Position numbers and translations under genes: made by a program. Below, piece after piece: positions 14,345-55,440 of a stretch of 64,000 nt of DNA. The stretch is from Candidatus Omnitrophota bacterium. GTDB lineage: Bacteria; Omnitrophota; Gorgyraeia; 2-02-FULL-51-18. The stretch is taken from contig CAMDWQ010000010.1 of the NCBI GenBank assembly GCA_945877765.1, forward strand, positions 5,679-69,678, read 5' to 3'. The notes under the pieces were generated by a model. The model was not told where the DNA came from, ran no database searches, and worked only from the letters and a program-made list of their open reading frames with translations. Numbering within the stretch: position 1 is the stretch's first letter; every line of letters begins with the position of its first letter.

Positions 14345-14379
14345 ATTTACTAGACTGATCTCGACAATTAAATAACAAA

Positions 14380-14520: not shown

Positions 14521-14582
14521 AGGGAGTCAGAAAACCTGCCATCATCTTTTCAAGATCAACCTTTCTTTACGAGGCATAAAGA

Positions 14583-37861: not shown

Positions 37862-38647
37862 ATGAAAAAAACCTTACTTCGATTGATCGGCATCTTTTTT
37901 TTGGCCGCGGTGCTTCTGGTGGTGGGCAAGGACATGATTGCCAAGTCTGTCATTGCAAATATTTTTCAGAAGACGACAGGCTTGAGGCTGGGTATCGGCA
38001 ATTTTCACTCGAGTCTTCTTAAGTCGGTGATCAGCGTTAATGATTTGAATCTTTATAATCCAGCTGCCTATTCCGAAAAAGTGATGTTCTCTATTCCTGA
38101 GGCGCGGGTAGGTTTTGACCTCGGCTCTATTTTGACAGGCAAGCCACATCTAAAGGAAATCTACGTCCATTTGGCTGAGCTTAAGATTGAGCGCAATAAA
38201 GCAGGCAAGCTTAATCTTTCGGAGCTAAAGCCTCCCGGTGGTAAAAAGAAAGCGCCGAGAGCGGGAAGCACCGCCACAGTCAGTGTTGACGTAATGAGGC
38301 TACGCGTCGATAAGGTGATTTATAAAGATTTCTCGCGGGCGACTCCGTCGGTTCAGGAGTTTGCTCTCAATATCGACGAAACTTATCGTGATGTCAAAGA
38401 TGTCAAGGCGCTGGTTCCCATCATCATCGGCAGCGCGCTAAAAAGTAGTGCACTGCGCTCTCTAATCAATTTTAATGTGAGCGATCTTCTGTATAATTTT
38501 GAAGCTGGCGGTATTAACATCCGTGATTTGGGCCTTGATCAACTCTCCAATATTTTTAACTCCGGCGTTGGCCAGACGGCTCAGAGTGTCTTGGGTAGTA
38601 TTTCGGGTCAGTTAGACTCGTTGTTTGACTCTTCCCAAAAAAAATAA
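37862..38647 (+). CDS. Hypothetical membrane-anchored protein (N-terminal transmembrane segment; weakly AsmA-N-terminal-like)
   Basis: 261 aa; N-terminal hydrophobic anchor; no confident family assignment. Confidence 0.45.
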   Translation: MKKTLLRLIGIFFLAAVLLVVGKDMIAKSVIANIFQKTTGLRLGIGNFHSSLLKSVISVNDLNLYNPAAYSEKVMFSIPEARVGFDLGSILTGKPHLKEIYVHLAELKIERNKAGKLNLSELKPPGGKKKAPRAGSTATVSVDVMRLRVDKVIYKDFSRATPSVQEFALNIDETYRDVKDVKALVPIIIGSALKSSALRSLINFNVSDLLYNFEAGGINIRDLGLDQLSNIFNSGVGQTAQSVLGSISGQLDSLFDSSQKK

Positions 38648-38673: not shown

Positions 38674-38743
38674 GTCATCCCCGAAATTATTTATCGGGGA
38701 TCATACCTTAGTTTGATTCCCGACTAGAGATTTCGGGAATGAC
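38674..38743. repeat. REP family A doublet upstream of the giant gene
   Basis: GTCATCCCCGAaattatttaTCGGGGATCA ... TGATTCCCGActagagattTCGGGAATGAC. Confidence 0.8.
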
Positions 38744-38855
38744 ACTGTGTGATGACATTGTGGGATGCGGGGTTAATCAAATTTAATCCATAACTAACGG
38801 TTCTTAAGCATTTTATATCCCACGTCATTTTATTTGATATTTAATCAAAAAAACA

Positions 38856-38884: not shown

Positions 38885-38961
38885 TAAAACCATGACAGAG
38901 GGAGCCGTTGATGGGGAGGGGTTGAGAATGATTTGTCAGAAAAGCTCTTAAAGGAGAATGA

Positions 38962-41900
38962 ATGCGCCGCTCGCCTTATTTAAAAATTATTTCGTTAGCT
39001 CTGATCATTAGCTTTTCCTTCTCCAACCTCCTCTATGCCGCCGACCCACGGGATCTCTTAAACGCCGCCAAAGCAGGCTTTGCCCTAGAAGACCAACGGC
39101 GTACCGGCGGGGAAGCGCCCCTAAATAATCAATCGCAAGGCTATGCCCAAGGATTGGTTGATCAGAAAAACAACCTAGCAGACCTAGAGCAATTAAACTT
39201 TTCTTTAACGACACAAAACGGAGATATTCTTAAGTATGCAGGCGATAAGCTAGCCCAGATCCAGCGGCCCGATGGAACGATTCTTCAAAATATTGTTTTA
39301 GCCGCGGACGGCAAAATCCAGAATGCGGATTTAAAACTCTTTGACGGTTCGATTCAGGTTTTTCAAAATGGCCAAGTCATAGGCTATGAGACTCCCGATG
39401 GAACCCAAGTCTTTTATGCCAACAGCCAGATACAAAAAACCATTTCTAAGAGTGGTGTTGAAACCCTCTACGCCTACACCAAAGACGCCAATGGGAAGGT
39501 CCTTGAGACTATCCTTGAGAACTCTCAAGCTAAAACCATCTATGATGCCCAAGGCAAATTAAAGGAAGTGTATCAGAAAGGACTATCTCAGCGGATGGTC
39601 TATCAGGCAGGAATTCTTCAAAGCATCACTCTGCAAGATGGCTCTCAAGCCCTTTTCCAAGCACAGACCATCAATAGCCAAGTCAAAGTTACGTTTAAGT
39701 CATATGTGGATGCGAATGGCAACACGTATGTGAATGATATGCAGTATCTTCTGAAAGATGGCTCTTCGCTAAAAAATATTATCTGGGGTAGTGATGGAAA
39801 AGTGGTTAATGCCTTACTCGAAAGCATCGACGGCAGCACCTACACTTTTACTAACAAGGTAATTACCGCCATTAGGCTTCCCAGCAATTGGGTACTCTCT
39901 TCCATCACCTGGGATACTCAAGACAAATTAAAAGACGGGATTCTTACGGATTTGGCTAATAACCAGTGGACCTATCAAGCGGGGGCACTGGTATCAATCA
40001 AGCTTCTGGACGGATCTATTCTATCGAGCATCACCTGGGATGCCCAAAATAAGATCAAAACTGCTAATTTAATAGACGCGCAAAAAAAGGAATACACTTT
40101 TGCCAATAATCAGCTCTCACAGCCTCTCAATGCGATCGCCTTTCAGCTTGATACCCAATACGGCCTTGTTGCCGGCAATAGCACCTACCAGTTCAACTGG
40201 GCGGGCAAGAATGAAAAATGGTTTAAGGCCAACAATAATACTTGGTATTTTATTCTCCCTGATGGCAAGGTGTATCTTTGGAATTCCGTTGCGGGTAAGA
40301 ACCTCACCACCTCCACGCTTGTAGTGACGCTAAACAGCAGTTATTGGGAAGATCCGGCATTTCTCTGTGATGCCTCCGATAGGGCAATAGTTCTCCAGCT
40401 TGATACTCAATATAGCCTTGTTCCCGGAAGCAGCACCTACCAATTCAACTGGGCCGGTCAGAATGAAAAGTGGTTTAAGGCCAACAACAATACCTGGTAC
40501 TATATTCTTCCCACAGGTCAATTGTATCTTTGGGATGCCAAGGGTGGTAAGAATCTCACCACCTCGACACTGGCAGCCACCCTCAACAGCCATTTTTGGG
40601 AAGACCCCACAAAGGTCCATCTTGCTTTTGAGAGAGCTGCTCTAGAAAGCACCGCGCTAAATCTAGATCGCCAGTACGCTCTTATTCCCAGTAGTAGTAA
40701 TTATTTCTTAAATTGGGCCGGTCAACAGGAAAAATGGTTTAAGAGTAGTAGCGGTACTGCCCAGTATTTTATACTCTCCGACGGAAGCTTGTATCTATGG
40801 AATCAACCCGCCGGAAAAAACCTCGCTACCTCCACAAAGCTTGCCACCCTCAGCGCTGATTACTGGGCAAATCCGACACTTCTTTGCCGCGCCTATGACC
40901 GCACAGTCGCAGTAGTCGTCACAAGCGCCTACACCGCAAAGATTATAGGTATCACCAAACCGCAAATTTCCGTGTCCAAAAGAACGCTCAGCGCGTCGAA
41001 ATTAAACATCGCTACTCTGAGCGCCGCTTTTTCGTTTAATTCAATTTTGTATAACACGGATGGAAGTTTTGCTCAGATCCTAGAAAAGGACAACACGACG
41101 CTTAATTTCAAAAATAATCTTTTGGTGGATGCCAAAGACGCGCAGGGAAAAATCATCCATTTTGATTTCACGGAGAGTGCTTTTGGAAATCTTTTAGGTT
41201 CAAGCCTCACGCAGAGCGGCGCGACATCCACCTATGATGAACAGGGAAATCTTTCCTCGGTAAAAGTGGGTGATACGACGATTCATTACAGCGCGGAAAA
41301 TAAAATCGAGTCCGTTGAGAAGGCGGACGGGACACGAGTGGAGAATATTATTTTTGATGCGCAAGGGAATATTCATGATGCCAAGATGACCGCGCCCGAT
41401 GGGACTCAGAGGACCTATCAGGCCAAAAAAATGATTCGTGAAAAAAAAGCTGATGGCACGGAGACTGATTTTGTGGACGGCAAGCCTTCGGTGACGCGGA
41501 TGGCGGACGGGCGGGTGTATGTCTATTCGCCGGCGGCTATTATCGGGAACTCTGCCGCTTTTAGGAGTATTTTGACGCAGTACGTCTCTGACGATGGAAG
41601 CGCTGTCTATGTCAATGACGGCATTCCCTTTAAAATCCAGACTAAGTCGGGCATGGTGTTGACAAATCTTGTGTTCGCGCTAGACGGTACTCTGACGGAT
41701 GCGATCGGATCTTTTACTGGGCCCGATGAAAATCAGATGACTTTAACCTATCAAGGTAAGGAAGTCAGGCAAATCATTTCCGCTGACGGCTCACGTCTAT
41801 TTTATGAAAATAATCGGCTTAAAAGCATGACCAAGCCCAATGGCGAGCAGATTATCTACGAATACACCCTCGATGGTGATGGGGAGATCTTGAAGATTAT

Positions 41901-44900
41901 TCTTAAAGACGCCTCTGGTACGCGGATTTATAATCCTGCTTTTGGAAAATCGTCCGAGCTTGTGGATGATGATTTGGTGAATCAGGACGGGGGAGAAGTC
42001 GATTTGGGACGCGCACTTCCTGCGATGGACCTATTGAGTTATTTCAAGGCGATCGAAAATACGACTACCCATTTGCCGGAAAGTCATGTGGGTATCAATG
42101 ACCCGCTGACTATTTCTTATACCTACGATGTGGCGCTGTATCTTTTGGCGGGAGCGTCTAGTGGCGGAGCTATTTTAGATTACATTATCAGTAACCCGGA
42201 AAAAATGATTAATACGACGTACGTCCCATCTGGCGGCATGTATAGCGATCTATCGACGTTGGGCGGTCAGGCGGGATTTGATCGAAACAGTGTGGTGGCG
42301 GGACCCAACGCGTGGATTGGTTTGGCTGCCTTGAAGCAATATCAAAAAACACAGGACGTAAAATATCTCAATTTTGCCAAAGCCCGAGCGGCCTTCATCA
42401 AGACGCTCTCGGATCCGTCAGGCGGTATCGTCATGGGGCCTGCAGGTCAATGGGGGATTCCCCCCTTCTCAGATCTTAAGTCCACGGAAAATAATCTATC
42501 CGCCCTCTATTTATACCAAGCGCTCTATACAGCGACCAATGACGCGCAATATCTTGCCGCGGCGGATAGTCTCTGGGCCTACGTAAAGACTCTTTATGAC
42601 CCGACCTTACACGCTTTTAGCCGCGGGGAACACAAGGGCGGCGGGGAGTGGCTTAAAGACAGTGCCAATGTTTTTGCCACGGACGTTTTGGCGTGGATGC
42701 CGTTTGAGCGCGTGGTGAATGATTCATTTTTTGGAGCGGATGTATTAGCCCGGCTAAAAGAAGTCGAGAATATGATTCGTGCCGCGGAGAAATACACGGG
42801 TCTTTTTACTCCGGTCGGTGATATTCAGGGTTTTAGTTATTCACCTGAGAGTAAAGATCGCAGTGTGATTTCCATTGAGTGGTCTGCTCAGATGGCCAAT
42901 CTTTATCTAAAAATTGCCCGCAGTTATAAGCAACTAGGAAATGACGTCAAATACCGTTTTTATGGATCTCGCTATCAAAAGTTGACCGCCTCGCTTGAGA
43001 CATTCGTCAAGACAGATGCTTCGGGTGTGAGTAGGGCTCCTTATGCTGTGTATCAAAATGGAAAAGGCGCTTACGGCGAGTTTACAGGGCATGGTTGGGC
43101 AACCCCTTCTCCCAAAAATCAAAATGGGGATGTTTTTAGCATGGCGAGTATCTATTATCAATTTTCACGTCAAAAAACAGATCCCTTGACCCTCGCCAAT
43201 GGATCCATCCTCTCGGCTAATTACATCAGCCAGGCCGATATTGATAAATATTCGGGCACGAGTTTACGCGATCAAAAATATTTTGACGCCGTGACCTCGC
43301 TTGAGCGCTATGAAAATGAAAAGTTTACGGCGGTATATTCCAAGGGCACTCTACGGAGTATCCAATATGAGAATATTTTGATCAACAATCCTGTGATTGA
43401 TGCCCGTGGATTTTTGGTGTCGGCAGAAATTCACACCCCTGATGGCCAGGTGTACACACTCAAAGATAGAAAATTGGCAACCCTCCTAAGGGCTAATGGG
43501 ACGCTTTTGGGTTATGAAGGAGACCTTATCGTGGATGTAACAGCGCCCAATGGAAAAAAAGTCCATTACACGTACACCAAAAATGCCCAAGGGTATGTGA
43601 CCGGCATCGCTGTGGAATACAACACCGGAAATGGGTGGATCGGTAAACCGATAGCGGAGTACTTATTTGATCCTGCCAACACCGAAGAAAAACCGATTCA
43701 TCAAACGAATTATCACTTGGCCGGTGATGACTACCGACAAGGTTCTGTTGGATCCTCAACAATTGGTAGCGGAGAATCGGAGTGGTTTGGTTCGGCGCAG
43801 GGACTGGACCCATTAGATCCCGAGGCCCGTCTTGTTTTTGATTCCAGCACGCTGGAGGGGACCGGTGACAGGAATTTTATAGATATTCAAGCGTATCGCT
43901 ACGATCTTGAATGGCCGGACAATATGCTTTCCGTCCAAAATGACAGTTTTGTATTTTTGAGAGCAAAAGAAACAAATTCTTCTACCGATGTTCATTTATC
44001 TCCCTATTGGATGACCGCGTCAGGATTATTGCTTTGGGTGCCGCTTCAAAATGGGTTTGATATCCCTCTCACTGATCAATATCAAAATCATCTGATTTCA
44101 ATCCAACCGGATGCGCTGGTTGTGGGTAGAAAAACATTTAACCTCCGCCTGGTTTTCGCGACGCCCATGCCCGCAGCCGCCCCATGGAAAATTTCTATCG
44201 CGGAGATGGATTATTTTCAATTAAAGCACATTGAGCCCGAGGATTACTTGCAGTACTTAAATCTTTCCCAAGAGCAGATGCTGGACGTTTCTAGGAAACC
44301 TTTAAAAAATGACGCCATGGATCTCCTTGAAGGGTCTCAGATCGTATCCAATTTTAATCATCAAAAGGAAGCCGAAAAGTTTTTGATCGCCATGGATCTT
44401 GACGCCAACTACAACTATTTATCCGGGACACGTGTGGATAAAAGTGTGGAGCGATATGCGGGCGGTAAGGTGGCAAGCCTGCTCAAGAATGGCTCTGAAG
44501 AGACCTACGAGTACGATGTCAACGGGCAGATCCAAAAAGTCATCAATAAAGACGCCGCGACTCAAGCGGTAAAGACAGTCACGTATTATCAATACGGACG
44601 CATCCGGCGGGTCGAGGACGCATCTGCGAAAGCGCTTTATACCTACAGCTACCAGACGGATTCTGCCAACAATGAAATTACACTCGTCAAAGATGAGGCA
44701 ACGGGGGAGCTAAAGCATTATCAAGGTAGTCGGCTCACGCAGATGGACAATGCCGACGGCACGCGAACGCTTTATTTTTATGAAAATACGGATGAGAGGA
44801 TTTCTCGCTCGCAGATCATGAGCGGTCAGAGTATCCTTGCAAAGTTTTCCTATTCCTATGAGGGCGCCAACACGCTTGTTACTGACGCTGATGGCGCCAC

Positions 44901-47900
44901 GAAAGTCTATGACGCCAACAACCTGCTTCTATCGATCATCACTCAAGGAGGTTTGGAATACCGGTTTAATCATTTAAAAGATGAGGCGGGCAATGCCGTG
45001 GAGGAGCAATTTTTGTATTCGGCCAAAACTGAGGATGGAATGACGCTCTTTTATAAAAATGACACCGTGGACAAAATTCAGCTAAAAGACGGGACCGTGA
45101 TTAATGTTTCCGAGGCGGATCAGGATTTGTATCAAAAAGTACTGATTAAGCAAGGCCTCGTGGACCAGGTGATTCATAAGACCGGGGAGCTTGCCGTTTA
45201 TATCCGTAATAATCGCGGGGATTTGAAAGAAGTCCGTGTCAGTAAAGCTGGGCAGGAGTACCGCTACACGCCCGATGGCCGTCTCGTAAGCCGCACAGAT
45301 GTTGGCGGCGTCACTTATCATTATGGATATATTTTGGATGGGGCTGGAAATATATCCAAGACGCGCGTGGTAAAGCGTACGGCAAAATTAATTGGGGGCG
45401 ATCTGCCAACAGTGGATCCGAATACCGGTGATTTTCTGAGACTGAGTGTTTTGTCTGCCGGGATTGTGGATGGGTGGAACGCAGGTCTATTTGCCAATGA
45501 CGAAGGTGTGGGGCATTTTGATACCAATTTCTGGCGGAATTCGTCGGATCAATGGACAGGCCGTGGGTATGACGTCGCCGTTGTCGATGCCAAAGGCAAA
45601 CTTATTAAGTCCGATCTTTTCGATATCTGGCAGCTTGGGGGCTCAGAAGCCGACCGGATGGCACAGTTTATTGAGCAAGTCCCTGTGGGAAATTATGTCC
45701 TCATGGCGGTCGGTGATGAAGGCGCTCTCAACATGACCGAGCGCGCTTACAAAGCCCTTGAGTCGCTGGGAAGCGCTCAGATACGAAATCTAAAGTTCAG
45801 GGGATCGTGGGGTCTTATTGGTAGAAAAGGTGCCGCTATTGGCACAGCCATCGAAGGTCTCCGAGATAGCCAAAAAGGCTACGTCTCTTTGCAAAATTAT
45901 GATACCGAGTATAGCTATTTTGATAAAAAGGGTGTTCCGATACCCTACGACCAATTCACCGCCGTTATTTCTCAAAATTGGAACAGTAGCTACCAGAGTT
46001 ATGTGGGGGATGCGGGGGAAATTCTTAAGACATCGGTCTATAGTGATGAATATGCTATCGCCTATCACAAAAATTATAATGAGCTCTATCCTGACTCCGG
46101 TTTTATTCAACTTTGGAATGACCGTTACCTTAATCAATTTACAGTCAATGAGTATGCCCAGGGAATCATAGATAAGGTTTCAACTACGGCTACCGCCAAA
46201 TATGTCTATTACGATAGCCGCTACCCGTTTAATTATGTCCACCCGCTTTTTGCAGTCGCTCTAAAAAATATTCTGGCGGCCAATGGCTTTCGGGTGATTG
46301 ATGCCAACCAGCTTGCGGAAGTCATGAAATTAGAAGGTTCTCACGCGGTGATTGTCTCGGCGCACGATGTGATGCCGGATACCATCTATGACCCCAATTC
46401 TATTTTTTCTATTTCTTATCGAAAGCTTTCGCGTACTTTTATGGAGAATGGCGGCACGCTCGTGTGGATGGGGGATCTGCCTTTTTATTACACGGGACAC
46501 GCGGACGGCAGTAAGACCATTGTCGGTGAGATCGGAGCGAAGACAGTTTTGGGGGTGATGCCTCTGGCGCGCGGCCTTCGTGCTCCGGTGAGTAGGACCT
46601 ATGTGCAAACTTTTGATGAATGGACGTTTATTAGCGGATGGATTCACGGAAATGGCGCGACGATTCAAAACGGGACTCTCCGACTGACTTCCCAATTGCC
46701 ATCAATAGTAGGCTCGGCAAGCGACCAAAACTTCAAGCCATCAACCGGGCTTTTGCGGTATACGGTTGATTTTAAAAATAATACGCTCAACTCAGGCTTT
46801 GAAACTTATCTAGAATTTCAAAATTTTACCCCTTATCAGACTCTGGGGATTCGCCAGGAAAACGGTGTGTTTAAATTTATAGGAAAGACTCCAGTGACCG
46901 GCGGATCGTCAGTGATTACCAATTTGGGCCAAGCTGCTTATGTTGCCGGCGTGGAATACACAGTGATTTTTGAAACCGAAAACAATGTCCTTAAAGTATT
47001 TTTATATCAAAAAAATCAGCCACAGCCCGAGGTGCCTACATTTTCAATCGCTAATGTGGACCCAAGCGTTGGGGCGAGTATTGGATTTAATATTCAGCAG
47101 GGTGAGGCGTTGGTCACAAGTCTTAAAAGAGATGAGAGGGAATACGAGATTATTTCTACGCAAGCGCCAAGCATTACTCCCGATTTTAGTTTGAAGGGCG
47201 GCGAGGCGGCGTTGGATACCTCCTTGCTTTATTTCGATACCAATGTCAATTTCCGGACGGTGCGTTGGGACAAGATTCAGGAATCGATTGGCTATTCGCT
47301 TGATAGCGATACGGCCGTGGTGTCCGATTACGATAAAAATGGTGATCTTATTTCCATTGCCAAGGCGGATCGCACGGTGACCACGTATGAAAACCAAAAA
47401 GTGCAGTTGGTGACGGACATCAACGGGTATGTTCTTGTGGAGTACGCTTACGATGCACAGGGTGCTTTGACTTCCATTACCAATGTCGGCCAAAGAAGAG
47501 AGCTCGCCGATCACATTGAGGACGCCAAAGACCGGGCCAATTTTGAGAAGCTATTTCTTTTTGAAGATGTTGCCATTGAGCATAATCTTACCGCTGGAGA
47601 GCCCATTGCTAAAAGTGCTCGCATCAGGTCGTTGGCGCACAGCGCCAATGTTCTCGACGGCGGACCTGAACCAGGAAGGTCATCGATGGGCATTGTTGCC
47701 GATGAGCTCATCAGTGAGCACGCAGAAAAATATCGCCAAGAGAATCCAAAGACGCTCGAGGGGGAAGTAGGAACAGACCCTTTCTGGATACAGGTTGCCG
47801 ATGGGTACTTGGCATACTCCAGCGCGAGACTGGAAGCGCTAAAAGTTTTACGTAGTACTCAAGATATCAAAGCCAAGAGCAGGGACGCCAAGAAAGAAAA

Positions 47901-50900
47901 GTCCAAGGCTCTTGACCGGGTGCGGGACATTATCCGAGATATCGACAACAGGGAAAATGAATATCACCAGACGGTGCTTCAAGCGATTTTCAATTTCAGC
48001 GCCGCTGTGCTCCAGCAGAAAAAAAATGAAATTGAGGCCGATTATCAAAAGGCATTTGATGCGCTCGCAGTGCAGACGAGCAATTTTGAAAAAGAAATCC
48101 AGAAAGAAGAGTCCAAGCCCGTCATCTCCGATTATTACCGCTCTATCTTAGGTCGCGATGCCACCAGCGCTGAGATTGAATCCTATTATCCGCAAATTGC
48201 ACAAAATGGAAAAATCAACGCCGCGGCTTTGGGCGTCAACTTGCGAAATTCAGCTGAGTTTATCCAAAGAACCAGTCGCGTTGGTAAGATTCGCGGGGAT
48301 GTCGAAGCGGCGCTGGATGAATATGTTTCTGCAGACACAGGCAAAAAAGCTACCCTTCTTGCCTCGCTAGGTCTTACTCCCTCCGAAGTCGTTAACCTCT
48401 CCGCGCAAGACATTCAAAAAATAAAAGATTACCTTCGTTCTCAAGCCCTGCATTTTGGCGAATCCGCTATCGAATCTTTGATGGCGCTGATCAAGTCCAG
48501 GGGGATTTCTCCCAACCGCGACGAATTGGCCGCCAAGCTCATTCTCATTGATATCTTCGCGGGCATCATTCACCCCTATTTGAAAGAAGGGGAGGAAATG
48601 CTCCTGTCGGCTTATTCGCTTCAGAAAGTCGCCGCTTTTTACGGGGTGGAAGCACAGACACTAAATCTTACCTATGAAGACATGCTCGCCATTTTTTCTG
48701 CAGGAACATCCTCTGCACGAGCGATTTTACACACAGAAGGTATTCATTATTCGGTGCTTACCGCGATCACCGCTGACCAAGTGACTATCCTTGAATACAA
48801 CGGTGATTCCCGCACCATGTCCAAGGCCGATTTTCTAAAATCGTGGAAGGGGGTAGCCCTTGTTGAAAAATCTACCGCCGCCCCCGTTCTCACCGGCCCC
48901 CAGAAATCAGCCACCGCACGTGTATTAAATTCAGATGAAGCCCGACAGATCAAGGGTGGATTCTTTATGTTTATCCCTTTTATCTTCACGATGCTTGCGC
49001 ATATAGCCGCGACCATCGGCGCCATCATTGCTAGCATCGGTACGATTATTGCCCAGATTGGCATCATGGTCGGCCAGATCCTACAGGGTTTGGGCGGCCT
49101 TCTATACCAGTTCGCCCAAGGCGTCGGCGCCGTTGTCAAAGGTCTCTGGACCGGCATCAAATTTGTCGGCATGAAAATTTTCACAGGCTTCGCCAAATTT
49201 TTCGGCCCGACCCTCGCCAAAGCCGCCGCCGGTGAGGCACTAAAGGTTACTGTTGGCCAGACCATTCTCAACAATGTCATCCGAATGGGTGTTAGCTACG
49301 TCGTCTCCAAAGGCCTCGACGCGCTGGGCGTGGACCCTATTGTCACGAGCATCATCTCAACGTTTGTGACAGGCGGGATGCACGGAGGATTTACCTCGCA
49401 AGGCTTCAATTTCGGCTTCAGCCTAGCCGACGGCCTCAAAGCAGGTCTCCAGTTAGGCGCCAAAACATTCCTCCAAGCCGCCGGGCTTGACCCCCAGCTT
49501 TCGGGAATCTTATCGATGACGACAGGCCCCTTGGTGAATGGGGTGTGGACGGGGAATGTGGGGGGAGAGTTATTTAAGATTGCGCCGGAGCTTACAACCA
49601 GCTTAGCTCAATACGGGATAGACAAACTCGGAAAATCGCTGGGGTTGGATCCGAGGCTGACAGGATTGATTTCAGCGCCAATCTCATTGGCGATAGGGAA
49701 AAATTTCCAGACTGGGAATATCTTCGGCCAAGATGTCATTAAGGCCGTCCAAGATGGCATTTTCCGAGGAGCTATCGCGTACGGCGTCGACTTTGCCGCC
49801 AATAGAATTACCGACAACAAGCTTCTTCAAGCCTTAAGCTCACGGCTTATCTCTGGAGCCATTGAAGGAACATTCCTTCAAAAAGATCTCTTTGCGGGAG
49901 TCGTTGGCGCCCTAAAGCAATCCGTTGTCGGCATTTTTGGAGCTAACCAAAGCGATGTTCTCGGCAATATTGTAAACTTCTCAACATTGGTGGCACAAAA
50001 TGGTTTTAAGAACGCCGCAGAGCTCTATTTGACCAATATCTTCAACAAACAGAGTATTGAAGCCATCTATCGCTTGGGCGGTATCGCAAGCGCTCTAGCG
50101 TCTCCTAAAACTCAAGTCACTCTCCCCGACGGAAGAGTTGCCTATCAGACAGTCACCTCCTCGGGAGAAGCGATAATCTTTGACGCCATGAACAACCTGC
50201 TCGGCTTTCAGAGAAACGGTCTTTATCAGATAGGAGGGTTTGGTATCACCAGCGCCGGATCCTTTGGGCTTATCAGTGGAAAATCTTTTGGAATGATCGC
50301 CGGCGGCTCATCATTTGAAGCCTCCATCCAAAATGGAAAAGTGACACAAATCACAACCTACACCGACCAAGTCCGCCTGGATATAGATTTGGGTGAAGGA
50401 ACGGATGGCATTCGTTTTGATTCCGACGGAAACCTGACCGATGGAAGGATGACGTTGGATGAGAGGATAGATTTTACGGTAGTCAATGGCACTGTTTACG
50501 GGATTGAGCTAGATAAAGAAAATCCAAATACAACCTCCGTTAACGATGCGTATGCGTTTGCTGAGCGTATTATTAGTGCTGTGCTGGATGGCTCGGGGAG
50601 TTCGAGTTCTGGGTCTAGCGTGATTGACCAATTGCAAAAAGAGCTCATCACTTACTATCTATTTGGTAATGGATTTGAGAATGAAAGAAGGAAAGAAGAT
50701 ACCCTTGATCCGCTTTTGAAGTTTTATACAGATAATCTGGAATTCGATGATCCTAAAGTGATTACTGAGGGTCAAAAAATTGTGGTGGATCTCTATGAAT
50801 TTACCAAAGTCGCCGGAAACGGTTTGGATTGGCTAGGGGATTTCAATCCCGTATTTTTAGTTTTGTTGTTAGGCGTGTTAGGCCTGACCTACGTCGCCGC

Positions 50901-51681
50901 CGATAGAATCATCCAAAAGGTGATCAACAACGAATCTCTGGATTCATCCGCCTCGGACGGAGAAAAATCTTTTTATCAAAAAGTACAAGATTACCTAAGA
51001 AAATTTAGCGAACAGACAGGTCTTGGCAATAATCTCGTACTTGAAACCATCAGACAAATGGAAGCATTGCAAGCCAAAAAAGGAAAGCTAAAAGATGCTA
51101 TCGCATTCGTTCACTCAGGGGCCACAGCCCCCGTTTTAAGTGCCATCGAGCAAATGCAATATGATGTAGAAACAGTGCTTATCTATGAAGGGCCCCACCC
51201 AAACTACACCGCACAATTTACAAATCCAAGCTTAAAGCGTATTATTCATGTCATGGGGTCGAGCCACGGCCTATTAGACAGCTCGCTCGAGGGAGACGCG
51301 CCTGTGCCGTTTTTGGGATGGGCAAACTTTAAAAACCCAGCCAACGTTGATTTTAAAAACATCAATATTGAAATTGAGGGTGCCTGGCACAGCGATTATG
51401 CCTATAACGCAGAGGAATGGGATAAAAAAATCGCTGCTGTTACAGGAAGCACCCCAACCGCGGTTGAGGCTGATCGAAATCGCATCAGAGCACTAAAGGA
51501 AAGAAATAGAAAAGTGAATTTATTCATGAGGGATTTGTATCAGGCGGCCTACAAAGATCAGACAAATCAAGGGCTCTTGGACGATTTTTTTGAAGATCTA
51601 AAAACAAAAGGCGCAGCCAATCTAGAGAGTGGCATCTGGAAAATTGATCCCACAAAATTAAGAGATGTGACCCCCCAATGA
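38962..51681 (+). CDS. Giant secreted multidomain protein (4239 aa) with YD/RHS-type repeats, a triplicated 83-aa module, a FAM3/ILEI-like domain, a DUF4214-like motif, an inactive C39-like peptidase fold, a Gly/Ala-rich hydrophobic region and a C-terminal GxSxG domain
   Basis: Uninterrupted ORF with ribosome-binding site and signal peptide MRRSPYLKIISLALIISFSFSNLLYAADP; many Y.YD..G repeats; the domain evidence is given in the findings. Confidence 0.85.
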   Translation: MRRSPYLKIISLALIISFSFSNLLYAADPRDLLNAAKAGFALEDQRRTGGEAPLNNQSQGYAQGLVDQKNNLADLEQLNFSLTTQNGDILKYAGDKLAQIQRPDGTILQNIVLAADGKIQNADLKLFDGSIQVFQNGQVIGYETPDGTQVFYANSQIQKTISKSGVETLYAYTKDANGKVLETILENSQAKTIYDAQGKLKEVYQKGLSQRMVYQAGILQSITLQDGSQALFQAQTINSQVKVTFKSYVDANGNTYVNDMQYLLKDGSSLKNIIWGSDGKVVNALLESIDGSTYTFTNKVITAIRLPSNWVLSSITWDTQDKLKDGILTDLANNQWTYQAGALVSIKLLDGSILSSITWDAQNKIKTANLIDAQKKEYTFANNQLSQPLNAIAFQLDTQYGLVAGNSTYQFNWAGKNEKWFKANNNTWYFILPDGKVYLWNSVAGKNLTTSTLVVTLNSSYWEDPAFLCDASDRAIVLQLDTQYSLVPGSSTYQFNWAGQNEKWFKANNNTWYYILPTGQLYLWDAKGGKNLTTSTLAATLNSHFWEDPTKVHLAFERAALESTALNLDRQYALIPSSSNYFLNWAGQQEKWFKSSSGTAQYFILSDGSLYLWNQPAGKNLATSTKLATLSADYWANPTLLCRAYDRTVAVVVTSAYTAKIIGITKPQISVSKRTLSASKLNIATLSAAFSFNSILYNTDGSFAQILEKDNTTLNFKNNLLVDAKDAQGKIIHFDFTESAFGNLLGSSLTQSGATSTYDEQGNLSSVKVGDTTIHYSAENKIESVEKADGTRVENIIFDAQGNIHDAKMTAPDGTQRTYQAKKMIREKKADGTETDFVDGKPSVTRMADGRVYVYSPAAIIGNSAAFRSILTQYVSDDGSAVYVNDGIPFKIQTKSGMVLTNLVFALDGTLTDAIGSFTGPDENQMTLTYQGKEVRQIISADGSRLFYENNRLKSMTKPNGEQIIYEYTLDGDGEILKIILKDASGTRIYNPAFGKSSELVDDDLVNQDGGEVDLGRALPAMDLLSYFKAIENTTTHLPESHVGINDPLTISYTYDVALYLLAGASSGGAILDYIISNPEKMINTTYVPSGGMYSDLSTLGGQAGFDRNSVVAGPNAWIGLAALKQYQKTQDVKYLNFAKARAAFIKTLSDPSGGIVMGPAGQWGIPPFSDLKSTENNLSALYLYQALYTATNDAQYLAAADSLWAYVKTLYDPTLHAFSRGEHKGGGEWLKDSANVFATDVLAWMPFERVVNDSFFGADVLARLKEVENMIRAAEKYTGLFTPVGDIQGFSYSPESKDRSVISIEWSAQMANLYLKIARSYKQLGNDVKYRFYGSRYQKLTASLETFVKTDASGVSRAPYAVYQNGKGAYGEFTGHGWATPSPKNQNGDVFSMASIYYQFSRQKTDPLTLANGSILSANYISQADIDKYSGTSLRDQKYFDAVTSLERYENEKFTAVYSKGTLRSIQYENILINNPVIDARGFLVSAEIHTPDGQVYTLKDRKLATLLRANGTLLGYEGDLIVDVTAPNGKKVHYTYTKNAQGYVTGIAVEYNTGNGWIGKPIAEYLFDPANTEEKPIHQTNYHLAGDDYRQGSVGSSTIGSGESEWFGSAQGLDPLDPEARLVFDSSTLEGTGDRNFIDIQAYRYDLEWPDNMLSVQNDSFVFLRAKETNSSTDVHLSPYWMTASGLLLWVPLQNGFDIPLTDQYQNHLISIQPDALVVGRKTFNLRLVFATPMPAAAPWKISIAEMDYFQLKHIEPEDYLQYLNLSQEQMLDVSRKPLKNDAMDLLEGSQIVSNFNHQKEAEKFLIAMDLDANYNYLSGTRVDKSVERYAGGKVASLLKNGSEETYEYDVNGQIQKVINKDAATQAVKTVTYYQYGRIRRVEDASAKALYTYSYQTDSANNEITLVKDEATGELKHYQGSRLTQMDNADGTRTLYFYENTDERISRSQIMSGQSILAKFSYSYEGANTLVTDADGATKVYDANNLLLSIITQGGLEYRFNHLKDEAGNAVEEQFLYSAKTEDGMTLFYKNDTVDKIQLKDGTVINVSEADQDLYQKVLIKQGLVDQVIHKTGELAVYIRNNRGDLKEVRVSKAGQEYRYTPDGRLVSRTDVGGVTYHYGYILDGAGNISKTRVVKRTAKLIGGDLPTVDPNTGDFLRLSVLSAGIVDGWNAGLFANDEGVGHFDTNFWRNSSDQWTGRGYDVAVVDAKGKLIKSDLFDIWQLGGSEADRMAQFIEQVPVGNYVLMAVGDEGALNMTERAYKALESLGSAQIRNLKFRGSWGLIGRKGAAIGTAIEGLRDSQKGYVSLQNYDTEYSYFDKKGVPIPYDQFTAVISQNWNSSYQSYVGDAGEILKTSVYSDEYAIAYHKNYNELYPDSGFIQLWNDRYLNQFTVNEYAQGIIDKVSTTATAKYVYYDSRYPFNYVHPLFAVALKNILAANGFRVIDANQLAEVMKLEGSHAVIVSAHDVMPDTIYDPNSIFSISYRKLSRTFMENGGTLVWMGDLPFYYTGHADGSKTIVGEIGAKTVLGVMPLARGLRAPVSRTYVQTFDEWTFISGWIHGNGATIQNGTLRLTSQLPSIVGSASDQNFKPSTGLLRYTVDFKNNTLNSGFETYLEFQNFTPYQTLGIRQENGVFKFIGKTPVTGGSSVITNLGQAAYVAGVEYTVIFETENNVLKVFLYQKNQPQPEVPTFSIANVDPSVGASIGFNIQQGEALVTSLKRDEREYEIISTQAPSITPDFSLKGGEAALDTSLLYFDTNVNFRTVRWDKIQESIGYSLDSDTAVVSDYDKNGDLISIAKADRTVTTYENQKVQLVTDINGYVLVEYAYDAQGALTSITNVGQRRELADHIEDAKDRANFEKLFLFEDVAIEHNLTAGEPIAKSARIRSLAHSANVLDGGPEPGRSSMGIVADELISEHAEKYRQENPKTLEGEVGTDPFWIQVADGYLAYSSARLEALKVLRSTQDIKAKSRDAKKEKSKALDRVRDIIRDIDNRENEYHQTVLQAIFNFSAAVLQQKKNEIEADYQKAFDALAVQTSNFEKEIQKEESKPVISDYYRSILGRDATSAEIESYYPQIAQNGKINAAALGVNLRNSAEFIQRTSRVGKIRGDVEAALDEYVSADTGKKATLLASLGLTPSEVVNLSAQDIQKIKDYLRSQALHFGESAIESLMALIKSRGISPNRDELAAKLILIDIFAGIIHPYLKEGEEMLLSAYSLQKVAAFYGVEAQTLNLTYEDMLAIFSAGTSSARAILHTEGIHYSVLTAITADQVTILEYNGDSRTMSKADFLKSWKGVALVEKSTAAPVLTGPQKSATARVLNSDEARQIKGGFFMFIPFIFTMLAHIAATIGAIIASIGTIIAQIGIMVGQILQGLGGLLYQFAQGVGAVVKGLWTGIKFVGMKIFTGFAKFFGPTLAKAAAGEALKVTVGQTILNNVIRMGVSYVVSKGLDALGVDPIVTSIISTFVTGGMHGGFTSQGFNFGFSLADGLKAGLQLGAKTFLQAAGLDPQLSGILSMTTGPLVNGVWTGNVGGELFKIAPELTTSLAQYGIDKLGKSLGLDPRLTGLISAPISLAIGKNFQTGNIFGQDVIKAVQDGIFRGAIAYGVDFAANRITDNKLLQALSSRLISGAIEGTFLQKDLFAGVVGALKQSVVGIFGANQSDVLGNIVNFSTLVAQNGFKNAAELYLTNIFNKQSIEAIYRLGGIASALASPKTQVTLPDGRVAYQTVTSSGEAIIFDAMNNLLGFQRNGLYQIGGFGITSAGSFGLISGKSFGMIAGGSSFEASIQNGKVTQITTYTDQVRLDIDLGEGTDGIRFDSDGNLTDGRMTLDERIDFTVVNGTVYGIELDKENPNTTSVNDAYAFAERIISAVLDGSGSSSSGSSVIDQLQKELITYYLFGNGFENERRKEDTLDPLLKFYTDNLEFDDPKVITEGQKIVVDLYEFTKVAGNGLDWLGDFNPVFLVLLLGVLGLTYVAADRIIQKVINNESLDSSASDGEKSFYQKVQDYLRKFSEQTGLGNNLVLETIRQMEALQAKKGKLKDAIAFVHSGATAPVLSAIEQMQYDVETVLIYEGPHPNYTAQFTNPSLKRIIHVMGSSHGLLDSSLEGDAPVPFLGWANFKNPANVDFKNINIEIEGAWHSDYAYNAEEWDKKIAAVTGSTPTAVEADRNRIRALKERNRKVNLFMRDLYQAAYKDQTNQGLLDDFFEDLKTKGAANLESGIWKIDPTKLRDVTPQ

Positions 51682-52175
51682 AAAATAAAGCTATTTTAAT
51701 ACTCGCAGGATCGCTACTCACTCTAATTTTGCTATTTATTTATTTTACAAACTCAAGAGCGACATATTCCAAGATAGCTGTTCGCTCAATCGATGAAAAT
51801 AAAATTTACGTTGGCGATGAAAAGCCAGGACTAGAATCAGCATCGGATGAGGCTAGTAGCTTTGCTAAGACTGTAGAGGGGCTTAACGAAGGTTGGGATA
51901 ATATTGGAACAGGAGAATCTTATTATAGAGCAGGGCAATATGAGGAGGCTGTAAAAGCTTATAAAAAAGCATACGATGTCGATCCTGGAAACAGGACTCT
52001 CTCAGGCAACAAATTGATCAACGTTTACGAAAAGCTCTCCCGATACGACGAAGCCATCGCCCTAGTAGATGAAATCTTAAAAACCCAACCACTTGTTGAA
52101 TATGGCATAGCGAAGTTCACCGCCATCCGCACTCGCCTCCTCGCCGCCAAAGTCCAATCTGCCAAAGCTGAATGA
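51678..52175 (+). CDS. Small membrane-anchored TPR-like protein, translationally coupled to the giant gene
   Basis: 165 aa; ATGA stop/start overlap; N-terminal transmembrane segment; helical repeats YYRAGQYEEAVKAYKKAYDVDP. Confidence 0.6.
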   Translation: MKNKAILILAGSLLTLILLFIYFTNSRATYSKIAVRSIDENKIYVGDEKPGLESASDEASSFAKTVEGLNEGWDNIGTGESYYRAGQYEEAVKAYKKAYDVDPGNRTLSGNKLINVYEKLSRYDEAIALVDEILKTQPLVEYGIAKFTAIRTRLLAAKVQSAKAE

Positions 52176-52355
52176 ATGAGTGGCAACGGATCCGCAAATC
52201 CATGCAAAATGTGAGATGATCCCCTCTAACTCGTGTTGCTGATTTTATTAAGACCTAAATAAATCGATTAATTTTTTATAAATGGTTAATCAGATAAAAA
52301 TTGGATACAATCTATATCAAGCGAATCAGTTTTTTAAAAAAATGAGGACATAGCA

Positions 52356-54437
52356 TTGACTGAAGAAATAGTTCCCATCGTATCACCCTCCGAAAGAAAA
52401 ACCCGCGCCACTAGTTACGAGTTGTCAATTAAGACTTTCTTAGAGGATCTCCAATTTAAAGATGTGGATGGGGCAAGAGATTCATTTTTAATAGGCGAAA
52501 ATCAGGTTGATGTTTGCGGAGGTCATGAGGATACACTCCTGATCATAGAATGCACGATGAAGCAAGCATTGGGGAAAAAATTGCTAATTGCCAAGATTGC
52601 GGAGTTAAGAGGAAAAAGGGATGTATTCCAAAAAGGCTTTAGAAAAAGCGAGAAGTATGGGCATTACAAAAATTTTAAATATATTCTTTCGGTGCGTAAT
52701 ATTCCGGTGCGTCGAGAAGATATTGATTATGCGAACAAAGACGAATGCAGAATTTATATATGGGATGATAACTGTATTGATTATTACAAGGATCTATATT
52801 CCAAAATCGGCGAATATGCCAAGTATGAACTTTTGGGTGAAATAGGGATTAGGCCGGCAAGTGGAAACACTGTTAGTATCCCAGCGGCTTGCACAAATAT
52901 TGCTGGATCTGATGTCTATTTATTTTTTGCAGACCCACGAACGTTACTCGAAGTTTCATGTGTCGCAAGACGTGAAAAGGGGCAAGAACGATACTATCAA
53001 AGGATCATAAACAAAAAAAAGCTTAAACAAATTGCTTCATATGTTGAGACTGGGAATATCTTACCCAATAACATCATAATAGGCATTAGTGAGCAATCCC
53101 GAAAATATTTAAAATTTACACCATGGCAAACCAAGCTTGATTACAAGCAACAATTATTGCAGTATGGTGTTAAATATGGAATTTTAGAATTTCCGAAAGA
53201 TTATCGTAGTTGCTGGATAATAGATGGACAGCATCGTCTCTACTCTTTTATAAACACAAAAAAACCTATTTATTTGCCTGTTGTTGCTTTTCATGATCTT
53301 AGCATGGAGAGACAATGCAAATTATTTTTAGACATCAATAAAAACCAGAAGCCTGTTCCTCCAGATTTAGTTTGGGATCTTAACGGTGACATGATTCCTT
53401 CCGAACCTGACGGCATTATTTCAAGCGTTGTCAAAAGTCTTAACGAAATGGAGCCGTTAGCTAGAAGAATCCACATTCCATCAAAGGGAATGCAAACATC
53501 TCACGGCTATTTAAAAATGTCGGGAATTTGTTTGAGTTTAAAAAGAACAAAATTAGGGACCCATGTTACGTATAGCAAGACTGAAAATCCATTTTGGAAT
53601 AAAAACCCCGATGAGACGGTTCGCCAACTCTCCAAAGCACTTTCAATATACTTTATTGTCATAAAAGATATTCTCAGAAAGGATTGGGAAAGGGGGGATA
53701 AGGGCTTGGCTCTTTCTAACGGGTCCAACTCGATATTAATTAGAATTTTTGAGAGAATTGTTTCCAACTGTGTGCTTAAAAAGAACGCTGTCAAAGCATC
53801 GGATTATGAAAAATATTTAAAGCCTCTTGGTAAATATTTAAACGAAAAAACGGATGAAGATTATAAAAAGATTCGTTTGATGGCCTCCAGCGAGGGCGGA
53901 AAAGATAACCTTTTGAGGGATTTTGTTTTATACATTCGAAAAGAAACAAATGACTGGCAATTTGGTGGAAATATAGATGCATCGGGATCCTCTGAAATAA
54001 AGTCTCTTGAAAAAAGATTTAAGGATTTGTTTGAATTAAAATTTAAAGAAGATAGGGCAGAGGATGTTCTTTCAAAGGATCTTTATGGCAAGGCATCAAA
54101 ATATCTTTCAACGCACGGCCTATCAAAACGTGATATTTATCGACAATTAACTTTTGGTGAGTGTGTTCGTGTTTTAAGGGAGAAAAAGGACATATTTTAT
54201 CCTAGTTTTGTTGGGTCTAATTGTGAATTTCATGCCGAAATTGATTTTGAGTCAGCATTAGGGCATATCACTAGGCACAGGAACAGCCAACTTTCACACG
54301 ATATTGGTGCGGCTGCTCGGGATACGGACGATCCGTTATTTAAAATTTACATTGATAAAATAAATAAATGTATAAATGGTATTTTGGGGGAAAGCGAAAA
54401 CGATGAGGAGGCAGAGGACGATAGTGATGAATTATAA
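52356..54437 (+). CDS. DGQHR-domain protein (DndB-like / ParB-nuclease superfamily) with an extra N-terminal nuclease-like region and long C-terminal region; TTG start
   Basis: Literal motif CWIIDGQHRLYSF at nt 53212-53250; ribosome-binding site GAGGA 6 nt upstream; acidic C-terminal tail. Confidence 0.7.
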   Translation: MTEEIVPIVSPSERKTRATSYELSIKTFLEDLQFKDVDGARDSFLIGENQVDVCGGHEDTLLIIECTMKQALGKKLLIAKIAELRGKRDVFQKGFRKSEKYGHYKNFKYILSVRNIPVRREDIDYANKDECRIYIWDDNCIDYYKDLYSKIGEYAKYELLGEIGIRPASGNTVSIPAACTNIAGSDVYLFFADPRTLLEVSCVARREKGQERYYQRIINKKKLKQIASYVETGNILPNNIIIGISEQSRKYLKFTPWQTKLDYKQQLLQYGVKYGILEFPKDYRSCWIIDGQHRLYSFINTKKPIYLPVVAFHDLSMERQCKLFLDINKNQKPVPPDLVWDLNGDMIPSEPDGIISSVVKSLNEMEPLARRIHIPSKGMQTSHGYLKMSGICLSLKRTKLGTHVTYSKTENPFWNKNPDETVRQLSKALSIYFIVIKDILRKDWERGDKGLALSNGSNSILIRIFERIVSNCVLKKNAVKASDYEKYLKPLGKYLNEKTDEDYKKIRLMASSEGGKDNLLRDFVLYIRKETNDWQFGGNIDASGSSEIKSLEKRFKDLFELKFKEDRAEDVLSKDLYGKASKYLSTHGLSKRDIYRQLTFGECVRVLREKKDIFYPSFVGSNCEFHAEIDFESALGHITRHRNSQLSHDIGAAARDTDDPLFKIYIDKINKCINGILGESENDEEAEDDSDEL

Positions 54438-54453
54438 AAGCTGAGAAGAATTT

Positions 54454-55221: not shown

Positions 55222-55440
55222 TCACTTGACTTGACACTTTTCCTTGATTGATCAATGATCGGATCATGCGAGTCCAAGAGTCTATAAACTTTAAAAAAAA
55301 TCTTGTTAGATTGCTAGATTATGTTTGGCGTGACGAATCCAAGCATTACCAAGAAAATCGAAAGCGTGACCATATATTTCTAACGATAAGAAGCTTGGCT
55401 CGTGAGGTAGGGTATGCCAAAAAGTGCAAGGGGTGAAAGC

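Follow-up and report, generated by a model that had tools for sequence, protein, structure and literature searches.

Serine-variant C39 fold, double-glycine-type motif and exchangeable C-terminal tips in a giant Omnitrophota protein: a candidate polymorphic-toxin-like system

The 64,000-nucleotide stretch of Candidatus Omnitrophota DNA considered here (contig CAMDWQ010000010.1, positions 5,679 to 69,678; hereafter the window, meaning the whole stretch at its full length) contains an uninterrupted open reading frame (ORF) of 12.7 kb, at 38962..51681 on the + strand, which runs from an ATG start to a stop codon, included in these coordinates, and encodes a protein of 4239 amino acids (aa). An original prediction, made from the letters of the sequence, described the product as a secreted mosaic of repeats and inserted domains, matching no single described family and ending in an enzymatic tip with a small coupled gene behind it, and it likened this layout to the logic of polymorphic toxins or of giant surface proteins. 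The question raised by the locus is what such a chain is for, and whether its many parts can be read as one device.

The answer favoured here, with moderate confidence and on the basis of sequence comparison, is that the gene encodes a Sec-exported, YD-repeat, polymorphic-toxin-like protein which would release its C-terminal fragment by means of a Ser-variant C39 domain, a reading in which cleavage, toxicity and immunity are inferred. Of the two kinds of logic originally suggested, it is the toxin version that is backed by the data, namely by a conserved module, a boundary at which the C-terminal sequence changes, pairs of tips and neighbouring genes, and toxin-type signatures among the tails.

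The C39-fold domain and the motif behind it

The finding concerns a whole family and not a lone oddity. A HMMER profile of the last 1089 aa, searched exhaustively against 1.84 billion cluster representatives, recovers at least 563 protein clusters with E-values up to 1e-3, of which 213 reach 1e-30 or lower; most members are 2000-7000 aa long, with the matched module near the C-terminus. Word-indexed protein searches returned only 4, 2 and 1 relatives, and the size of the family is therefore judged from the exhaustive search only. The few relatives with a taxon name are Candidatus Omnitrophota/Omnitrophica. The search for homologous giant genes that the original prediction had proposed as a check is thereby answered, the more so as a collinear orthologue (relative P0001) is found on contig CAZHID010000009 (GCA_964532445.1, labelled uncultured Planctomycetia). 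Among 152 family sequences compared region by region with phmmer, matches number 134 for the C39-like domain, 114 for the DUF4214-like stretch ahead of it, 68-90 for the YD-type regions, 16 for the ILEI domain, 2 for the GH76-like region and 1, the window protein itself and no other, for a triplicated module. From these uneven counts the family is best seen as sharing a scaffold of repeats into which differing inserts are set, ahead of a C-terminal module that stays constant.

It is on this C-terminal module that the proposed function turns (coordinates of all features are collected in Table 1). Pfam was scanned with the full chain as well as with ten overlapping segments of it, and the segment scan gave Peptidase_C39 (PF03412), with 37 bits against a cut-off of 22 (E = 3e-9), over aa 3215-3304. 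A profile of the family matches PCAT1 (E = 4e-8), with His3262 aligned to the catalytic His and the Asp or Glu at position 3278 to the catalytic Asp. An AlphaFold model of aa 3030-3400, built from a seven-sequence alignment, has a mean predicted local distance difference test score (pLDDT) of 77, the C39 domain lying mostly at 85-96, and its top Foldseek matches in the PDB are the peptidase domain of PCAT1 (7n87), ComA (5xe8, 3k8u) and LahT150 with its leader peptide (6mpz), with template modelling (TM) scores of 0.6-0.7 over the entire target domain; the StbD structure 8ssk was also matched. In other words, the C39-like fold that had been proposed holds, and can be regarded as established. 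The claim of a DUF4214-like motif next to it stands in part: the Pfam match (aa 3041-3103, E = 0.015-0.14) falls under the cut-off, whereas the stretch is conserved in the relatives as counted above and is modelled as helical with a pLDDT of 80-95. No ABC transporter domains were found in the giant protein by Pfam, whether in the whole chain or in its segments.

The conservation of individual residues is equally well established. In an alignment of 124-137 family domains the nucleophile column, occupied by Ser3168 in the window protein, holds Ser in 121 of 124 sequences and Cys in 3 of the 124, within a nearly invariant H-F-G-x-S-A motif, while His3262 is kept in 133 of 135, position 3278 is Asp in 67 and Glu in 67, and D3197, G3201 and S3216 are invariant. 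In the AlphaFold model Ser3168 begins the helix at model residues 138-149, at the N-terminal end of that helix, which is the position of the Cys in a papain fold. The three Cys-bearing relatives (P0108, P0146, P0127) have Asn or Asp instead of His3164, four residues upstream. Since only Ser or Cys occurs in the nucleophile column, and since the residue at 3164 covaries with it, an active rather than a decayed site is suggested, the conservation having the appearance of an active-site pattern.

Just after the C39 domain comes a motif that is present in all 137 aligned sequences, and which in the window protein reads VLNSDEARQIKGG followed directly by FFMF. Counted from the putative cleavage point, position -12 is Leu in 104 and Ile in 25, -11 is Ser in 70 and Thr in 35, -8 is Glu in 79 and Gln in 27, -4 is Ile in 91 and Val in 40, and -3 is Arg in 91 and Lys in 34; Gly is found at -2 in 137 of 137, Ala (95), Ser (37) or Gly (4) at -1, Phe at +1 in 97, and Phe, Trp or Leu at +2. 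The double-glycine leader consensus of C39 substrates is LSxxELxxIxGG. In the model a short helix (aa 3320-3329, pLDDT 89) adjoins the C39 domain between disordered flanks, an arrangement that fits a leader helix docked on that domain.

The same motif brings in another possibility, which is that cleavage occurs in trans, by a PCAT-type exporter for which the C-terminal fragment would be a giant bacteriocin-like cargo, and that the cis C39-like domain is a chaperone-like binder as in HlyB. The fit of the motif to the canonical leader consensus would suit such a route, as would the missing catalytic Cys of the cis domain and the resemblance of the Gly/Ala-rich hydrophobic fragment behind the site to class II bacteriocins and microcins. 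We nevertheless regard it as quite improbable. There is no PCAT-type exporter in the 64-kb window, where the ABC genes form a peptide-importer set with a solute-binding protein; the motif lies 3333 residues into a protein which itself bears a Sec signal; and the Ser/Cys-only nucleophile column, covarying with H3164, suggests catalysis over mere binding.

Cleavage in cis after Gly3333, the course preferred here, would free a fragment of rather constant dimensions, the length from site to C-terminus having a median of 873 aa across the family (interquartile range 816-899). The original prediction had noted a long hydrophobic Gly/Ala-rich region in this part of the chain, and composition and hydropathy agree: the first 130 aa past the site contain 15% Gly, 13% Ala, 11% Ile, 10.5% Leu, ~10% Val and ~9% Phe with only ~6% charged residues, and a transmembrane-like segment begins at or near residue 1 of the post-site fragment in 113 of 117 members. 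Behind it, the ~320-aa Gly-rich region is the best-conserved part of the fragment. Neither the hydrophobic nor the Gly-rich region has a match in Pfam, NCBIfam or the PDB.

A scan of genome contigs returned just CAZHID010000009 again and one weak, partial match from a member of the Pyrinomonadaceae. The latter, at positions 8673-8939 of contig DATMDU010000067 (Acidobacteriota), has 29% identity over 84 aa to the conserved Gly-rich region and lies in a 468-aa ORF, which may be a stand-alone relative of that region.

Variable tips, their neighbouring genes and a possible mechanism

Towards the end of the chain conservation gives way to variety. Relatives P0006, P0007 and P0012 align with the window protein to its last residues, whereas P0009, P0013 and P0015 are collinear with it from the N-terminus to aa 3702-3827 and are fully divergent thereafter; the existence of this boundary between constant and variable parts is established. 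BLAST clustering of the tails gives one major cluster and ~19 minor ones. The tip of the window protein, comprising the last ~306 aa, is found in 71 of 117 complete relatives. Within its family S4052, G4053, G4099 and H4143 are invariant or nearly so, and the consensus G/A-[YH]-S-G-G ... G-T-x-D ... G-A-x-H-x-D-Y has, as far as its sequence can be read, the order and spacing of an alpha/beta-hydrolase triad. A C-terminal GxSxG had been claimed for this tip: the Ser of that motif, and a His downstream of it, are indeed invariant in the family, but the elbow of the window protein itself is V-H-S-G-A, departing from the consensus. The window tip is possibly an esterase or lipase. A hydrophobic helix at aa 3961-3979 is not counted as a feature of the family, since it is not conserved in the orthologue P0001.

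The alternative tails offer leads, not proofs, as to what else may be carried. The tail of P0015, from an Omnitrophota member, matches the pre-toxin family PT-TG (E = 1.2e-4, 22.5 bits against a cut-off of 23.5), that of P0084 contains DAHHVLP...NIH, a motif which recalls AHH nucleases, together with a weak DUF2380 match and no match in the PDB or NCBIfam, and that of P0091 resembles, weakly, an alpha/beta-hydrolase. Five other alternative tails, and most of their partner proteins, match nothing in Pfam.

The coupled small gene that had been noticed downstream does overlap the giant stop codon, and it is conserved in other loci. Its relation to the tip was examined in a metagenome scan that gave 78 loci with flanks, counts being made on non-redundant loci with enough downstream sequence and with identical tails collapsed. 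A TPR gene follows the hydrolase-like tip in 26 loci and is missing in 2, whereas it follows other tips in 3 loci and is missing in 28 (Fisher p = 3e-11, with 5 discordant loci), the counts including contigs from a few metagenomes, in which some lineages are possibly over-represented. An independent check, in which the last 300 aa and the first downstream ORF were each clustered by BLAST, pairs tail cluster 0 with downstream cluster 0 in 32 of 35 cases and tail cluster 1 with a ~120-aa signal-less protein in 6 of 8, and there are further pairings for clusters 2, 4, 5 and 7. The covariation of tip and neighbour is accordingly established. Moreover, among 27 distinct TPR partners all but one (26 of 27) begin with a signal peptide, a lipobox or a membrane anchor. 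The partner is therefore placed on the periplasmic side, the compartment in which a hydrolase directed at the membrane or envelope would need to be blocked.

Taken as steps, these features suggest the following mechanism. The giant protein, with its long YD/RHS-type stalk, would be exported by Sec, and the inserts of the stalk (the cell-wall-binding-like triplicate, the GH76-like region and ILEI) presumably touch the surface of a target cell. Next along the chain come the DUF4214-like domain, the putative Ser3168/His3262/Glu3278 site on the C39 fold and the candidate leader motif LNSDEARQIKGG, and here the C39 domain would cut its own chain after Gly3333 to give a C-terminal fragment of ~906 aa. 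The hydrophobic Gly/Ala segment of this fragment, along with its conserved Gly-rich region, may then insert into or cross a membrane, and the fragment would carry a swappable effector tip, in this case a Ser/His hydrolase-like one, against which the membrane-anchored TPR protein would protect the producer. Self-cleavage, membrane insertion, toxicity and immunity are the parts of this scheme that we infer. Omnitrophota are suspected predators or epibionts. More tentatively still, and as a proposal about which we are rather doubtful, the whole could amount to a hitherto unrecognised way in which Omnitrophota, and uncultured bacteria related to them, deliver interbacterial or predatory toxins: a Ser-nucleophile C39 domain would cut its own chain, and the freed hydrophobic Gly-rich fragment would bring an exchangeable effector into the membrane of a target without recourse to type V, VI or VII secretion.

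Several points weigh against this scheme. With regard to the peptidase, the C39-like domain contains no Cys at all and must therefore be either a Ser variant or inactive; Cys-to-Ser changes usually cripple C39 enzymes, non-catalytic C39-like domains exist, as in HlyB, and the domain may merely bind the leader motif. With regard to delivery, it is not evident how the outer membrane would be crossed, the hydrophobic stretch that follows a Sec-exported chain of 3300 aa could be a stop-transfer anchor in the producer, and an AlphaFold prediction of aa 3334-4239 from five sequences gave no fold (pLDDT 37). That the organism has an outer membrane follows from a TonB-dependent receptor gene in the window, directly 5' of which there is a cobalamin riboswitch (106 bits; window 14368-16772). 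With regard to the effector, the Asp column of the tip is Asp in 59 of 75 relatives and His4102 in the window protein, in which a full catalytic triad is therefore not evident. A 13-sequence profile of the tip has no sequence match in Pfam or the PDB, so that assignment of its fold stays inferential; there is no NCBIfam match to the tip or to the Gly-rich region either, and a strand-Ser-helix arrangement at S4052 is visible only in the low-confidence model (pLDDT 37). Lastly, the AHH and PT-TG signals each come from a single protein and lie under the Pfam cut-offs, and the hydrolase-like tip occurs in about 60-70% of members, a diversity below that of classical polymorphic toxins.

These considerations lead to the main rival reading, a surface protein anchored in its producer, which we hold to be unlikely. 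Here the protein would be an adhesin or enzyme scaffold whose hydrophobic C-terminal region sits in the producer's cytoplasmic membrane, the C39 domain being inert or a sheddase and the TPR protein a helper in assembly or export. Such a topology would accord well with a Sec signal followed by no hydrophobic segment until aa 3189 and by transmembrane-like segments at 3334-3380, and the glycan-related inserts (ILEI, GH76-like, cell-wall-binding-like repeats) would be in keeping with it; the literature on Omnitrophota giants reads proteins with C39, ILEI and C-terminal anchors as devices for attachment or cell-wall degradation; and the post-site region, conserved in both sequence and length, is more like part of a machine than like a toxin. 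What a scaffold leaves unexplained is the switch of tail family at a fixed boundary, with downstream genes specific to each family, and the PT-TG and AHH-like tails. Nor would an inert domain be expected to hold Ser, His, Asp/Glu and Gly at -2 nearly invariant. It is on these grounds that release of a toxin-like fragment remains the favoured explanation.

The stalk, the reading frame and its surroundings

Most of the protein's length lies ahead of the C39 domain, and here the parts named in the original prediction are largely borne out. Its YD/RHS repeats are matched across the whole protein by Pfam RHS_repeat (PF05593; E = 1.5e-18, 67 bits against a cut-off of 22), with segment matches near aa 175-202, 740-772, 949-969, 2102-2134 and 2817-2843, to which a scan of NCBIfam adds a YD-repeat match alone (TIGR01643, 23.9 bits against 15.8). 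Its triplicated 83-aa module exists as three copies in tandem (aa 391-474, 475-562 and 563-650) that agree in 44-60 of 82-85 aligned residues, and within it there is a weak Choline_bind_1 match in Pfam (E = 3.8e-4). Its FAM3/ILEI-like domain is a full-length match to PF15711 (E = 8e-24, 84.3 bits against a cut-off of 27, profile positions 1-90 of 90). Less secure is the helical region with glycosidase-like features: similarity to GH76 exists, as a partial Pfam match at aa 1116-1212 (E = 3.7e-4), but its 20.6 bits fall under the cut-off of 25.9. The top four PDB matches for aa 1040-1410 are all GH76 mannanases (E = 0.045-0.07), and the resemblance stays a lead.

The prominence of YD repeats, together with a C-terminal tip and a neighbouring gene, makes it natural to ask whether the protein is a canonical Rhs effector, that is, a YD cocoon with an aspartyl autoprotease, delivered by type VI secretion or in the manner of an ABC toxin. 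The RHS_repeat and TIGR YD_repeat matches speak for this identity, which is nonetheless very improbable, given that the core-end motif (PxxxxDPxGL), a mark of aspartyl autoproteolysis, is missing, a regular-expression search for DPxG[LWM] finding no match in the entire protein, that Pfam scans of the protein and of the scanned window ORFs show no PAAR, VgrG or SpvB/TcdB-type domain, that there are no secretion-system genes in the scanned parts of the window, and that the protein has a Sec signal peptide instead and YD repeats broken up by many foreign domains. For want of the core-end motif the canonical Rhs identity was dropped.

Table 1. Positions in the window of the features of the giant gene and its partner gene
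Feature	Position	Strand	Basis or remark
GGAG ribosome-binding site	38953..38956	+	5 nucleotides 5' of the giant-gene ATG; direct sequence reading
Sec-type signal peptide, predicted (aa 1-27, LYA/AD)	38962..39042	+	hydropathy and sequence
Conserved N-terminal YD-like region (aa 28-390)	39043..40131	+	phmmer, 90 of 152 relatives, down to E = 1e-148; weak RHS_repeat
Three tandem modules of ~84-88 aa (aa 391-650)	40132..40911	+	weak choline-binding/cell-wall-binding-repeat similarity; absent from the other relatives in the set of 152
YD/RHS-type repeat region (aa 651-1039)	40912..42078	+	RHS_repeat, E = 1.3e-4 and 0.0086; common to 82 relatives
Alpha-helical insert, weak GH76 (alpha/alpha-toroid glycosidase) similarity (aa 1040-1410)	42079..43191	+	Pfam, PDB
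YD/RHS-type repeats with unassigned beta-rich insert at aa 1560-1800 (aa 1411-2160)	43192..45441	+	RHS_repeat, E = 1.1e-10
ILEI/FAM3 domain (aa 2201-2291)	45562..45834	+	Pfam PF15711
Inserts without assigned family (aa 2300-2740)	45859..47181	+	no Pfam match; aa 2300-2540 accompanies ILEI in 6-12 relatives
YD/RHS repeats (aa 2741-2860)	47182..47541	+	Pfam RHS_repeat, E = 8.4e-8
Charged helical region, possibly coiled coil (aa 2861-3035)	47542..48066	+	composition, K+R 0.14, D+E 0.18
DUF4214-like helical domain, start of conserved C-terminal module (aa 3036-3140)	48067..48381	+	Pfam, model
C39-peptidase-fold domain, S3168 at nucleophile position, H3262, E3278 (aa 3141-3310)	48382..48891	+	
Double-glycine-type leader motif VLNSDEARQIKGG, putative cleavage after G3333 (aa 3320-3333)	48919..48960	+	family conservation
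Hydrophobic Gly/Ala-rich region with IGxxIAx heptads (aa 3334-3463)	48961..49350	+	
Conserved ~320-aa Gly-rich region with GLDP motifs (aa 3464-3783)	49351..50310	+	recovered in 117 of 117
Beta-rich linker (aa 3784-3933)	50311..50760	+	homology to other-tip relatives stops in or just before it
C-terminal tip, Ser/His hydrolase-like, VHS4052GA and H4143 (aa 3934-4239)	50761..51678	+	
Partner gene, 165-aa protein with N-terminal membrane anchor and TPR repeats	51678..52175	+	start overlaps giant stop (ATGA)

As to how the gene begins, the single ORF and its ribosome-binding site are present exactly as originally claimed. The N-terminus, MRRSPYLK with two Arg, followed by a hydrophobic core at aa 9-27 (mean Kyte-Doolittle hydropathy 1.91) and LYA/AD, looks like the Sec signal peptide that had been proposed. 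The promoter that had been read ahead of the gene fares less well: a simple scan called neither a sigma-70-type promoter nor a terminator around the giant gene, and what can be seen by eye is a perfect TTGACA near 38856 with a poor -10 element. The whole chain of 4239 aa contains only two Cys, at aa 469 and 642, both inside the triplicated module.

A frame of this length in a metagenome-assembled contig brings with it the concern, raised already in the original prediction, that a chimeric join or a collapsed repeat has produced an artificial fusion. The orthologous contig CAZHID010000009 speaks directly to this point. It has a 2295-aa ORF and a 1513-aa ORF with only ten N of a scaffold gap between them, which together follow the window protein collinearly, at 32-38% identity, from aa ~637 through to its C-terminus. 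A TPR gene comes next, the product of which is 32% identical to that of the window; the collinearity is thus found in a different genome. A Logan assembly of run ERR5863105 contains a contig that is 100% identical to window 43428-54621 (11.2 kb) and spans the final 2750 codons (8.25 kb) of the giant gene along with the two genes behind it, of which the TPR gene is the first; because it was possibly built from the same reads as the window, it counts as a second assembler and not as a second sample. A contig in ENA matches window 51395-55830 at 99.8% identity. The cover of the second assembly starts at 43428, leaving outside it the N-terminal 4.5 kb (38962-43427, triplicated module included), but in pairwise comparison the N-terminal 300 aa and the overall domain order are seen again in relatives, and the three module copies are just 52-70% identical, which makes collapse of a repeat unlikely. 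The giant ORF is not an assembly chimera, an artefact of either kind being extremely improbable.

The surroundings of the gene have features of their own. A ~38-nucleotide palindromic element, GTTTGATTCCCGAyTArAGATTTCGGGAATGACA, occurs in two copies where chance would lead one to expect none, one intergenic just 5' of the giant gene (38715-38744, +) and the other where an ABC ATPase gene ends (30921-30950, -), and may be a dispersed REP/MITE-like repeat. Directly 5' of the giant gene there is a 261-aa ORF (37862-38647) whose similarity to the very long DUF748/AsmA profiles is confined to their N-terminal ~170 positions; it may represent a short protein of AsmA type or else a gene that has been truncated. 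Right after the TPR gene comes an islet of low GC content (52356-55221; 0.38-0.40 against ~0.46-0.50), found with the same layout in two other assemblies, which encodes a DndB-like protein of 693 aa and a DpnI-like methyl-directed restriction endonuclease and is probably an acquired defence cassette. Further away lie an IS200-like Y1 transposase gene (60171-60824, -) and, among housekeeping genes, a protein combining Schlafen AlbA_2, HATPase_c_4 and winged-helix domains (21466-22815). The ORFs at 56417-57916 (499 aa) and 62419-62925 (168 aa) have no Pfam match at E <= 1e-5.

Comparison with known systems

The general logic proposed here has precedents in proteins of quite different make. MARTX, TcdA/TcdB and the FHA-2 region of CdiA represent a logic of internal autoprotease, hydrophobic or Gly-rich region presumed to enter a target membrane, and delivered effector, and this logic they share with the scheme proposed for the window protein, to which no sequence or fold relationship was found. 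The window protein differs from them in the type of its protease, in having its effector last, and in the absence of an inositol-phosphate-dependent cysteine protease domain.

Closer in phylogeny are the giant proteins of Omnitrophota. In such giants West-Roberts et al. 2023 (bioRxiv 10.1101/2023.11.21.568195) describe C39, ILEI and RHS-like beta structures, as well as membrane segments at the C-terminus, and suggest C39 as their possible cleaver, while a 2026 preprint (10.64898/2026.06.07.730766) contains an architecture cluster of 24 long Omnitrophota proteins with PF03412 alone. The original claim that the protein matches no described family needs qualifying in this light, in that long Omnitrophota proteins with Peptidase_C39 as their main Pfam match are on record, with no mechanism given. 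The published giants of the Archaeovorin/Dockerin type, as there presented, are of at least 30,000 aa or are defined by dockerin, TSP3 or multiple enzymes, unlike the window protein with its 4239 aa and no Pfam match to dockerin or TSP3. In the passages searched, neither preprint mentions a Ser in place of the catalytic Cys, a double-glycine site in cis, tips that vary or downstream genes paired with them. A full-text literature search returned nothing on DUF4214 together with C39, and within the searchable literature nothing was found that describes such a Ser variant, its site in cis, the constant Gly-rich region or the pairing of tip and neighbour.

In the polymorphic toxins catalogued by Zhang et al. 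2012 (PMC3482391) the releasing domains are HINT, ZU5, PrsW, caspase-like, Tox-PL1, OTU and PVC metallopeptidase; C39 is listed there solely among the terminal toxin domains, as Tox-PL-C39, the triad of which is Cys-His-Asp. The window protein is like these systems in its export signal, long repeats, internal peptidase fold, variable tip and covarying small downstream gene, and one relative has a near-threshold PT-TG. It is unlike them in that its C39 fold lies within the chain, bears a Ser as nucleophile-position residue and comes with its own double-glycine-type site, in the ~450-aa conserved hydrophobic region before its tip, and in having no Rhs core-end motif.

With PCAT1, ComA and LahT150 the domain has in common its fold, the aligned catalytic His and Asp, and a motif like their leader consensus. 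In contrast to these enzymes, it is not fused to an ABC transporter, has Ser instead of Cys in the nucleophile column, and finds its presumed substrate on its own chain, 25-60 residues downstream; moreover, being part of a Sec-exported chain, it would be extracytoplasmic. We know of no earlier natural Ser-for-Cys swap at the active site of the C39 peptidase family. If the proposal is correct, this would possibly be the first, with a covarying His; for hundreds of giant proteins of uncultured bacteria that so far lack annotation it would supply a function both concrete and testable, and it would add a new type of releasing peptidase, along with a translocation module, to the catalogue of polymorphic toxins. 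The loci could then be mined for effector/immunity pairs by way of HFGxSA, of L-S/T-x-x-E-x-x-x-I/V-R/K-G-A/S/G then FF, and of the end of the Gly-rich region.

A precedent is StbD-CT, a CdiA-like toxin in which a C39 peptidase cleaves itself in cis after Gly-Gly, as needed for its delivery, and in which the C39 domain is the toxin itself, Cys-dependent and redox-regulated, with the site upstream of the domain (bioRxiv 10.64898/2026.05.07.723447). Both proteins have a C39 domain within a polymorphic-toxin-like chain and a diglycine-type site in cis, cleavage at which has been shown for StbD and is predicted here. Where the window protein departs from StbD is that its domain is internal and free of Cys, and that the site lies downstream of it; the piece released would therefore be the C-terminal fragment.

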